Shown in pieces: positions 59,340-60,571 of a stretch of DNA of 64,000 nt (positions are counted from its first letter, which is position 1; the number at the start of each line of letters is the position of its first letter). The DNA lies in the IMG/VR virus record IMGVR_UViG_2721755651_000007; one strand, 5' to 3'. The stretch is from a virus. Its lineage: Duplodnaviria; Heunggongvirae; Uroviricota; Caudoviricetes. Position numbers and translations under genes: made by a program. A model generated the notes under the pieces. That model searched no databases and had not been told where the DNA came from. It worked only from the letters and a program-made list of their open reading frames with translations.

Positions 59340-59639
59340 ATGGCGCTTTATATTGATATCAGCGCCATTGCCGGACAGGTAAGAGTTATCAGAGCGGTAA
59401 CTAAGCGGTATGCGCCTTTACTTCAGAAAGTCTCTGGTGAGTGCACCGAAGATATTGTCAACGATTTCGTCATCGAACTGCGAGGACTCATCTTCAGTTA
59501 CAAGGTGACCACAATTTTTGCAGATGGCTCCCGCGAAACTGTCAGAGCCCTGCGGCTTAAAGGATGTGTCAAAGACTTAGCCACCACATTCTGGGCAAGA
59601 AAACTTGATTGTATTCATAACCAATTTCCTCTCGAGTAA
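59340..59639 (+). CDS. hypothetical left-operon protein
   Basis: 99-aa ORF. Confidence 0.35.
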   Translation: MALYIDISAIAGQVRVIRAVTKRYAPLLQKVSGECTEDIVNDFVIELRGLIFSYKVTTIFADGSRETVRALRLKGCVKDLATTFWARKLDCIHNQFPLE

Positions 59640-59711
59640 CAGACCCCTCAGAGGATACCACCTCGCCTGACGTGGTTAAAAAGCAGGCAACGCTAACCAC
59701 AAGGAGCCGAC

Positions 59712-59930
59712 ATGCAGAAACGAGACCCCGTCATCATCGCGCCAGACTATACCGATGATGAACTTTATGAGTGGATGCACCAGAAAATTAAGGCGGTGCA
59801 GGACCTGAAATGGGCCAATGAAGCCAGGGCTAAGCAGGCTGAAAATCTGTCCGCTCTGGAGCAGGATATCACCAATCTGGAAAAAGCAGCGGCATTAAGC
59901 ATTGCCAGAATGATTACATACCCACGTTAA
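59712..59930 (+). CDS. hypothetical left-operon protein
   Basis: 72 aa, AGGAG SD. Confidence 0.4.
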   Translation: MQKRDPVIIAPDYTDDELYEWMHQKIKAVQDLKWANEARAKQAENLSALEQDITNLEKAAALSIARMITYPR

Positions 59931-59952
59931 TAGCTAACCAACGAGGCTAATA

Positions 59953-60360
59953 ATGGAATTTAAAGATTTACCAACGCCATTACAGGAAATGGCATCGAAT
60001 ATAGTTCGTTCACAACTGGCTACTCTTGACCTTAGTACCGCAGAAAAAGAAACCATCGATAATATGGTTCGTAATGTGCGCAATGCTTTTTCTGGGCTAT
60101 ATGGTTCTGATAATCAAAAGCAGGAAAGCGATGTTAATAAACGGGTAATTTCTGTTTGCGTGAATGGCCATGTTCTTTCATCAATCAAAACAGAAACGGC
60201 GACAGTCTTCGATTGCCTTTGCATTGTACAGAGCCTTGTTGATGCCCTGTTTCGTTCAGTGAATTTAGAAAATGATGCAAATCTGCGAGGGCGCATAATA
60301 GCACATCCATATGCACATACTTTAGGCTCTGTGGATATCAAAGATCCCACAAATCTTTAA
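59953..60360 (+). CDS. hypothetical MEFKDLP-family protein (variable cargo)
   Basis: shares N-terminal about 50 aa with 12765..13403; GAGG SD. Confidence 0.45.
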   Translation: MEFKDLPTPLQEMASNIVRSQLATLDLSTAEKETIDNMVRNVRNAFSGLYGSDNQKQESDVNKRVISVCVNGHVLSSIKTETATVFDCLCIVQSLVDALFRSVNLENDANLRGRIIAHPYAHTLGSVDIKDPTNL

Positions 60361-60571
60361 TGAAATAGTTAACGCGAATTGTACTTGCTCTTTCGGTTGC
60401 TTTCAGAATACGCGTTGAAACTGCTGGCGGTAATTTGGTATTCCATTTATTAAAATCATGCCCGGGAAAGTACTCTTCGAAAATACTTTTAACTGCAGAC
60501 TCGCCTATTGAAATGCTGCTTACCATGCGATTTTGATAAAGGCATTTAGCAATAAGAGTTGATTTTAACAT
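60338..60571 (-). CDS. small hypothetical protein, antisense to left operon
   Basis: SD GGAGGG; same position as A's 13404..13613 but unrelated sequence. Confidence 0.35.
   Translation of the reverse strand: MLKSTLIAKCLYQNRMVSSISIGESAVKSIFEEYFPGHDFNKWNTKLPPAVSTRILKATERASTIRVNYFIKDLWDL

Follow-up and report, generated by a model that had tools for sequence, protein, structure and literature searches.

This analysis concerns positions 59340-60571 of a 64,000-nucleotide viral DNA window (Caudoviricetes, IMG/VR record IMGVR_UViG_2721755651_000007; the window is the whole stretch of DNA analysed), where four small open reading frames (ORFs), here called orf99, ydfC, orf135 and orf77, lie between a phage repressor gene and a conserved block consisting of the dicF leader, the DicF small RNA (sRNA) and dicB. 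The four genes lie towards the promoter end of a dicBF early-left operon of the Qin type, which belongs to the lambdoid prophage integrated at ompW in Escherichia coli O157:H7 (CP-933O/PPompW, hereafter prophage B). On comparative sequence evidence, orf77 and the C-terminal domain of orf135, which we term CTD-80, represent an old and tightly linked gene pair of temperate-phage immunity regions. The 2.4 kb around this slot is 100% identical to many O157:H7 genomes, and RefSeq and GenBank annotation places the slot within the lambdoid prophage beside ompW, named PPompW in phage records, in the order dicC, dicA-like repressor, orf99, ydfC, orf135, orf77 (antisense), dicB, DUF1482, exonuclease, xis, int, ompW. 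The four ORFs, first called from the DNA letters alone, are confirmed by ORF listing, by the annotated coding sequences of O157:H7 EC4115 in RefSeq (accessions in Table 1) and by end-to-end matches to PHROG families of unknown function (E 1e-39 to 1e-67), and they are more than chance ORFs.

Table 1 Features of the accessory-gene slot of prophage B and its borders (positions in the window; aa, amino acids; HTH, helix-turn-helix)
Feature	Position	Strand	Remarks
dicC/Cro-like regulator, 75 aa	58365-58592	minus	Pfam P22_Cro E 3.2e-13; annotated Cro/CI family and dicC; outside the cargo
DicA-like HTH repressor, 135 aa	58669-59076	plus	Left border of slot; Pfam HTH_3 E 4.3e-14; annotated dicA in PPompW records
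Candidate dicBp-type early-left promoter	59175-59204	plus	TTGACC-18 nt-TAAATT; consensus scan 9/12
orf99, 99 aa	59340-59639	plus	Stands in for K-12 ydfA and ydfB; phrog_21318 E 4.6e-67, full length; WP_001240336
ydfC, 72 aa	59712-59930	plus	Conserved dicBF-operon gene; annotated YdfC, WP_001171903; phrog_1744 E 9e-39; DNA near-identical to K-12
634-bp clean insertion relative to K-12 Qin	59951-60584	genes on both	Contains exactly orf135, orf77 and the orf77 Shine-Dalgarno sequence
orf135, 135 aa	59953-60360	plus	WP_000394552
MEFKDLP N-module, orf135 residues 1-50	59953-60102	plus	Predicted helical hairpin; helices 8-23 and 32-47 (AlphaFold2, AF2)
CTD-80, orf135 residues 56-135	60118-60360	plus	Standalone homologs (77-79 aa) in Serratia, Dickeya and Klebsiella share 33-42% identity
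3'-end overlap of orf135 and orf77, 23 nt	60338-60360	convergent	Same overlap in other paired loci
orf77, 77 aa	60338-60571	minus	phrog_10348 E 1e-47; WP_000920491
orf77 Shine-Dalgarno GGAGGG	60575-60580	minus	Plus-strand CCCTCC; 3 nt before ATG, read from sequence
Conserved dicF leader, ~320 nt	60585-60905	plus	Right border of slot; conserved with K-12 and prophage A
Variant DicF sRNA copy	60906-60955	plus	Rfam RF00039 43.5 bits, E 1.3e-7; gathering score 48
dicB, 62 aa	61130-61318	plus	Pfam DicB E 1.7e-37; annotated dicB

Pairwise alignment with the ydfC-dicB region of K-12 (NC_000913.3) delimits the 634-bp insertion, which reads as an imported cassette of two convergent genes with overlapping 3' ends. 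The original prediction had described the whole stretch as variable cargo between repressor and conserved block; the slot does vary, but ydfC is a conserved member of the dicBF operon, and the unit that actually varies is the convergent two-gene cassette, in which the gene shown to be expressed without inducer is the antisense orf77 and not the modular protein orf135. A search of complete E. coli genomes finds the cassette in 659 of 5426, mostly as a single copy, and Shiga toxin-producing serotypes predominate among the matches listed; the only GenBank phage records that contain it are those of the PPompW series and phage Evi.

Beyond E. coli, the same two genes recur in a strikingly constant arrangement. 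In prophages of Serratia, Dickeya and Klebsiella, orf77 lies a short way past the CI repressor on the strand opposite the early-left genes and converges with a 77-79-aa CTD-80 gene, with the 23-nt 3' overlap found between orf135 and orf77; in the five loci read from these genera CTD-80 is the first called gene beyond the repressor, on the repressor's strand and before orf77, and no DicB is called in the flanks of the prophages read. A convergent CTD-80 accompanies orf77 in 90 of 92 loci (the exceptions being a truncated locus and a distant Psychrosphaera match), orf77 accompanies CTD-80 in 63 of 66 (the exceptions being two 201-aa alleles and one truncated locus), and the overlap is kept across genera in 89 of the 90 paired loci (26 nt in two of them). 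These counts are of loci and not of independent events, because many are near-identical E. coli sequences, and about 20 come from other genera or diverged sequences; a scan of species-representative genomes returned 4 loci only. Three further relatives of orf77 with less than 50% identity still lie in the same arrangement beside CI and Cro, and the convergent pair with this overlap recurs in prophages of a dozen or more enterobacterial genera. The standalone pairs share the layout of SieB-type exclusion genes, being antisense, convergent with the first early-left gene and beside the immunity region, whereas the O157 pair lies after orf99 and ydfC. We found no description of the pair in the literature searched, and it is absent from Pfam, NCBIfam and PADLOC; consequently, while the dicBF operon, lambdoid mosaicism and accessory genes beside the repressor are already known, the CTD-80/orf77 pair, its fixed convergent overlap and its capture by the MEFKDLP module appear to be undescribed.

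Alignments show that orf135 is a fusion of a 50-aa N-terminal module, named MEFKDLP, with the roughly 80-aa CTD-80, the two being joined by a linker that is predicted to be disordered (residues 48-60, AF2). The original prediction described it as a MEFKDLP-family member with a different C-terminal domain; its identity to the MEFKDLP protein of prophage A (12765-13403) is 54% over residues 1-50 (E 1e-17), and nothing aligns beyond. The N-module matches five PHROG families differing in length, its middle part evolves fast (dN/dS, the ratio of nonsynonymous to synonymous substitution rates, is 0.39-0.75), and every named source among 224 homologs is Escherichia or Salmonella. The check proposed with that prediction, a survey of the shared N-module with alternative C-termini across genomes, resolves these 224 homologs into seven unrelated C-terminal clusters, two of them single sequences, with protein lengths of 135/201, 124/126/106, 212/208, 133/137, 122, 129 and 94 aa. 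Near-identical N-modules carry different tails, and MEFKDLP proteins thus form a family with a constant and a variable module; the predicted modular head-swap holds in that one N-module sits on at least six unrelated C-termini, yet it is the tail that is swapped and not the head.

CTD-80 itself has a wider distribution than the N-module. A profile search recovers 76 proteins, mostly standalone, from at least 10 genera, including Serratia, Dickeya, Klebsiella, Raoultella, Hafnia, Citrobacter, Enterobacter, Leclercia and Yersinia. A few Citrobacter members are fused to a ClpX-type zinc finger: in Citrobacter freundii (L178/L179 4001-4420; P0180, P0209-P0211) CTD-80 follows a ClpX-type C4 zinc finger (PF06689, E ~1e-9), and this gene is still convergent with a diverged orf77-like gene of 78 aa. 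AF2 predicts a beta-hairpin (65-79) and two helices (85-101 and 105-111) at a per-residue confidence (pLDDT) of ~70-82, with a mean of 69 for the domain. The most conserved segment of the family, LE.EAN.SG.TI.H..F..GS..I, is predicted to be mostly extended with a pLDDT of ~50-69, a pattern that hints at a partner-binding motif. Standalone members show 0.13-0.30 nonsynonymous differences per site (pN) against 0.58-0.85 synonymous differences (pS), as computed on six alignable loci. The fused E. coli domain is more diverged, with the best-conserved family motifs altered (AVAADY to ATVFDC, EANASGKT to DANLRGRI). We rejected a Walker-A reading of EANASGKT, in which the spacing is one residue short and which is lost in E. 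coli, and likewise an N-antiterminator reading of orf99 or CTD-80, as the N-termini of both lack the arginine-rich motif of lambda N; CTD-80 moreover has a median isoelectric point of 5.5 and a predicted folded domain.

The antisense gene shows the signs of a long-maintained protein. Homologs of 77 aa with 55-72% identity occur in Klebsiella, Serratia, Dickeya, Xenorhabdus, Yersinia, Morganella and Salmonella, and the family comprises 163 clusters at 50% identity, nearly all of them standalone proteins of 74-80 aa (a 1037-aa match, P0259, in the search of representatives is a low-complexity repeat protein and no fusion). Its dN/dS across genera is 0.06-0.33, and together with the CTD-80 values this points to purifying selection on both partners. 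AF2 models orf77 with a pLDDT of 96.7 and a predicted template modelling score (pTM) of 0.85, a confident orphan fold that would be a new helical one, and its grand average of hydropathy (GRAVY) is -0.13. The C-terminal tryptic peptide VNyFIKDLWDL has been seen by mass spectrometry in enterohaemorrhagic E. coli (EHEC), so that the orf77 protein is translated in uninduced cultures. The Shine-Dalgarno sequence expected for it is present. Outside E. coli, a TGn-TAYNCT extended -10-like element lies ~30-35 nt before the ATG in 15 of 15 distinct upstream regions. In O157 the 5' flank of orf77 is the minus strand of the dicF leader. Only weak promoter candidates, for which we make no claim, were noted for orf77 in E. 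coli (61065-61038 by scan; a TTTTCA-17-TAAACT match in the leader by eye), and the only minus-strand terminator-like site downstream of orf77 (59907-59890) lies inside ydfC. One public source labels the exact orf77 sequence as a dGTP triphosphohydrolase, which is probably a spread annotation error, implausible for 77 aa without a Pfam match.

What surrounds the N-module varies on both strands. Within class I of the MEFKDLP proteins, the 135-aa form is paired with orf77, while the 201-aa alleles (E. coli L175-L177 4001-4775; P0007-P0031) have an extra tail of ~66 aa after CTD-80 and are paired with an unrelated 63-aa antisense gene (MTQEEKVMFL...) that has the same 5' untranslated region (5' UTR) and Shine-Dalgarno sequence as orf77. 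In class II, the common 124-aa form has no antisense partner in 35 of the 37 loci sampled and a 73-aa gene in the other 2, and the 106/109-aa forms face a 91-aa gene; class V (122 aa) faces a 104-aa gene, and class III (212 aa, prophage A) is paired with orf73. The antisense partners of prophages B and A (77 versus 73 aa) are unrelated, and orf73 has no match among GenBank phages by tblastn. Several E. coli antisense genes of the slot, orf77 among them, share this leader-derived 5' UTR and Shine-Dalgarno sequence. In E. coli GCA_016682355.1, a ParE/PaaA2 toxin-antitoxin pair (L176 2694-3172) occupies the same slot, between the repressor and ydfA. Given these varied antisense partners and the ParE/PaaA2 pair, the early-left stretch from the DicA-like repressor to the dicF leader is an accessory-gene hotspot.

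The frame in which this hotspot sits is that of a dicBF operon, with a DicA-type repressor divergent from a DicC/Cro-type gene, followed by leader, DicF and dicB; of ydfA, ydfB and ydfC only the last is present, with orf99 in place of the other two. In K-12 the dicBp promoter drives this operon, DicA represses it, and processing of the transcript yields DicF (PMC10448788, PMC5069750); O157 strains are reported to carry several dicBF loci (PMC5069750). The candidate promoter in Table 1 occupies the K-12 dicBp position, and from 59204 to dicF the plus strand has no predicted terminator. Relative to 118-aa alleles with an upstream GTG start, O157 orf99 has a 1-nt deletion within 59283-59345 (GGGCGAGTC vs GGGCGAAGTC), and consequently what is annotated as a 99-aa protein may lack part of its N-terminus or be poorly translated. 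Prophage A provides the second dicBF locus of the window (repressor 11670-12308, DicF 13952-14003). The conserved block postulated by the original prediction is real, leader, DicF and dicB being 93% identical between the two prophages; it begins at ~60585 against K-12 and at ~60625 against prophage A.

Several observations concern the RNA elements of this block and of the wider window. The variant DicF of prophage B has the canonical 5' seed region and a 3' stem-loop (GGCGGCATCTGTTTGCCCATGAACTGATGTCCGCC) unlike that of K-12 and prophage A; because its score falls below the gathering score it is missed at default Rfam thresholds, whereas the prophage A copy scores 75 bits. DicF and its flanks (60895-61000) also have ~89% megablast matches in the Aeromonas phage MT713136 and a match in an Actinobacillus phage record, unexpected hits that possibly reflect contamination or a widely shared element. 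The dicF leader is very strongly conserved (also prophage A 13680-13950 and K-12 Qin, L180 2060-2380) and contains a GC-rich hairpin, GCCGGACACGGGTGAACATCCGGC, and a similar hairpin, GCCGGGATTTTTAACCACGCCCGGC, precedes orf77 homologs of Serratia (locus L083). No Rfam family covers the leader, and a structured RNA such as a group II intron or retron was rejected there, Rfam giving only DicF and a weak STnc100-like match; a 124-aa minus-strand ORF (60565-60939) is treated as spurious, as its frame is not conserved between prophages A and B. That weak match to STnc100 (RF02076; 60944-61149, 32.5 bits, E 1e-4) falls in the dicF-dicB intergenic region, and a full STnc100 lies at 48463-48671 (175 bits), which suggests, from sequence similarity, a relationship between the STnc100 family and the region that precedes dicB. 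At gathering level, Rfam further identifies one hok/sok-type antitoxin RNA per prophage (5255-5429 and 53640-53789), the anti-GcvB sRNA AgvB beside STnc100 (48402-48461) and an IS3-type ALIL frameshift pseudoknot (7906-8022). Prophage B also carries the adhesin gene paa/adfO (54736-53978, minus strand), which the EC4115 and PPompW annotations place between the replication genes and hokD, consistent with CP-933O identity.

With regard to function, database searches were uniformly negative. Pfam, PADLOC and NCBIfam yielded nothing above threshold for the slot proteins, the other C-terminal classes or the five alternative antisense partners; even at E up to 1, none of the PADLOC-DB 2.0 families matched the four slot proteins (orf99, ydfC, orf135 and orf77) or their counterparts in prophage A, and the alternative partners and C-terminal classes gave only noise (E > 0.01). 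Neither orf135 nor orf77 matched a toxin-antitoxin family, and no homology of orf77 to SieB was found, Pfam and PHROG giving no functional match. The original prediction had regarded the modular proteins as defence proteins, but nothing ties them to defence: as no slot family matches a known defence, toxin-antitoxin or Pfam family, a defence reading is only partly supported, and orf135, being inside an operon that a DicA-type repressor keeps off in lysogens (K-12 precedent, PMC10448788), has the wrong expression state for a standing defence protein. Defence is accordingly treated here as a hypothesis and not as a finding.

We tentatively favour, well short of conviction, a reading in which orf77 excludes superinfecting phages in the lysogen and the early CTD-80 gives self-immunity. 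Under this reading, orf77 would be a moron-type gene expressed from the prophage, and genes antisense within lytic operons are described as typically prophage-expressed accessory loci (PMC7067206), while orf135/CTD-80 would be made only when the DicA-controlled early promoter fires. Head-on early transcription would then run into orf77 and shut it down, rendering the two expression states exclusive. The two proteins would be cognate antagonists: orf77 would bind a host or phage protein in the cytoplasm of the lysogen, the most likely outcome being exclusion of superinfecting phages, and the early-made CTD-80 would counter it to let the prophage itself grow lytically, a logic of exclusion and self-immunity at the map position of lambda N and sieB. 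It is possible, if rather doubtful, that CTD-80 and orf77 thereby constitute a new two-protein prophage module wired to the lysis-lysogeny switch, in which the lysogen protein excludes or guards and the early partner neutralises, convergent transcription enforces exclusive expression, and the E. coli partner has been captured by a fast-evolving N-module that also carries other C-terminal domains. Several points weigh against exclusion by orf77. Neither experiment nor homology ties either protein to exclusion, to toxicity or to its partner, and a cytoplasmic protein of 77 aa is small for a sensor-plus-effector role. The tight linkage could stem from the 3' overlap, which would hamper separation by recombination. 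CTD-80 can exist without orf77, as the 201-aa alleles with their unrelated 63-aa partner demonstrate, and the common 124-aa class mostly dispenses with an antisense gene altogether. The E. coli version of the -10-like element is degenerate, and a promoter search there found nothing convincing. Finally, the peptide comes from cells in stationary phase, where spontaneous derepression of the operon can occur in a subpopulation, and hence it does not prove that lysogens express the protein.

The linkage and convergent layout fit equally well with a reversed polarity, which taken alone we consider unlikely, although we rate it nearly as likely as exclusion: early CTD-80/orf135 would be a host-directed effector (for takeover or counter-defence) and orf77 the lysogen's antidote against a leaky or stochastic early promoter, with induction removing the antidote through head-on transcription. 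The position of CTD-80 in the Serratia, Dickeya and Klebsiella loci read, as first called gene beyond the repressor, is typical of host-takeover and anti-defence genes, orf77 is present without inducer, and the occurrence of CTD-80 on different N-modules (MEFKDLP and the ClpX-type zinc finger) is as expected of an effector that is variously targeted or oligomerised; in K-12, moreover, the operon encodes the toxic DicF and DicB and is spontaneously on in a subpopulation (PMC10448788). However, we detected no toxin-like or anti-defence domain, and the 201-aa alleles retain CTD-80 without orf77, which an obligatory antidote would not predict unless the E. coli domain is non-toxic, an escape to which its altered motifs lend themselves. 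In another explanation the slot simply holds uncoupled small accessory genes, and the mosaic arises as a by-product of recombination at conserved flanks, with the N-module and ydfC to the left and the dicF leader to the right, and of insertions that repeatedly hit an ancestral MEFKDLP gene at its 3' end. The class II C-terminus, which occurs without an antisense gene, with the 73-aa gene or with the 91-aa gene replacing only its last residues, speaks for it. Such mosaicism is classic in lambdoid phages, and both the leader-derived 5' UTR and Shine-Dalgarno sequence shared by unrelated E. coli antisense genes and the different C-termini on near-identical N-modules fit with it; yet uncoupled genes leave unexplained a pair and a 23-nt overlap that are kept across genera, down to less than 50% identity and in unrelated flanks, and we regard this explanation as distinctly unlikely. 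The model of the original prediction, in which orf135 and its relatives are variable-specificity defence proteins with a constant N-module and exchangeable C-terminal domains, seems improbable to us. Its modular architecture is real, the middle of the N-module evolves fast (dN/dS 0.4-0.75), a related prophage holds the ParE/PaaA2 pair in the slot, and, according to PMC6832061, the operon neighbour DicB protects against some phages when expressed. On the other hand, no class has a match in PADLOC, Pfam or NCBIfam, a gene in a repressor-controlled early operon is not expected to be expressed before infection, these proteins of 106-212 aa have no recognisable enzymatic or sensor domain, and the N-module is limited to Escherichia and Salmonella. 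Equally slim is the prospect that the cassette acts mainly at the RNA level, the orf77 unit damping early read-through into dicF and dicB by transcriptional interference and antisense pairing while its protein is secondary. Early transcription must indeed cross the convergent orf77 unit before reaching dicF and dicB, the sole minus-strand terminator-like site within ydfC means that the orf77 transcript could be antisense to all of orf135, and RNase III already processes the operon mRNA in K-12 (PMC10448788). Nonetheless, orf77 is conserved as a protein (in its dN/dS, constant 77-aa length and confident fold) and is translated, and those Serratia, Dickeya and Klebsiella prophages that were read contain the pair with no DicB called in their flanks.

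The early-left operon beside the repressor houses host-takeover, anti-defence and exclusion genes of lambdoid phages, most of its small genes being uncharacterised. Here, four hypothetical proteins are reduced to a defined and testable 634-bp cassette, in which orf77 combines a confidently predicted orphan fold with direct mass-spectrometric evidence. If either exclusion with self-immunity or an effector with its antidote is true, the pair would be a new family of prophage-encoded immunity and would explain the recurrent lambda N/sieB-like layout; if the genes are uncoupled, the slot is a case of ordinary lambdoid mosaicism. Additionally, as it immediately precedes one of the dicF-dicB copies of an EHEC strain, the cassette may influence the amounts of DicF and DicB, which are cell-division and virulence-linked regulators.

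Among known systems, the closest in overall organisation is the dicBF operon of K-12 Qin (dicA, ydfA-ydfB-ydfC-dicF-dicB-ydfD), which shares with prophage B the repressor/Cro pair, ydfC, the ~320-nt leader, DicF, dicB and a DUF1482/ydfD-type gene, with near-identical DNA in ydfC and the leader; O157 differs in having orf99 for ydfA/ydfB, the 634-bp cassette between ydfC and the leader, and an altered DicF 3' stem-loop. In layout, the pair resembles lambda N-sieB, where, by the lambda annotation, N (35037-35438, minus) abuts the convergent sieB (34482-35036, plus), such that a first early-left gene is convergent with and abutting an opposite-strand gene just beyond the immunity region. Expressed from the prophage, sieB brings about exclusion, and esc is what spares the phage itself. 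The P22 sieB/esc/sas exclusion module belongs to the same comparison, and its sas RNA is mentioned in PMC7067206. However, SieB has ~190 aa and is unrelated in sequence to the soluble 77-aa orf77, and CTD-80 departs from lambda N in lacking an arginine-rich motif and in its predicted folding. The paaR2-paaA2-parE2 type II module of O157 prophages is likewise a small two-protein antagonist module in the same slot (L176: PF21217 PaaA2, PF05016 ParE), but its genes are co-directional and belong to known Pfam families, whereas orf135 and orf77 are convergent and overlap at their 3' ends. Convergent units with overlapping 3' ends that allow antisense control are found in the type I toxin-antitoxin systems txpA/ratA and bsrG/SR4 of Bacillus prophages, where a non-coding RNA serves as antitoxin to a small hydrophobic toxin peptide; in contrast, orf135 and orf77 both encode conserved soluble proteins.

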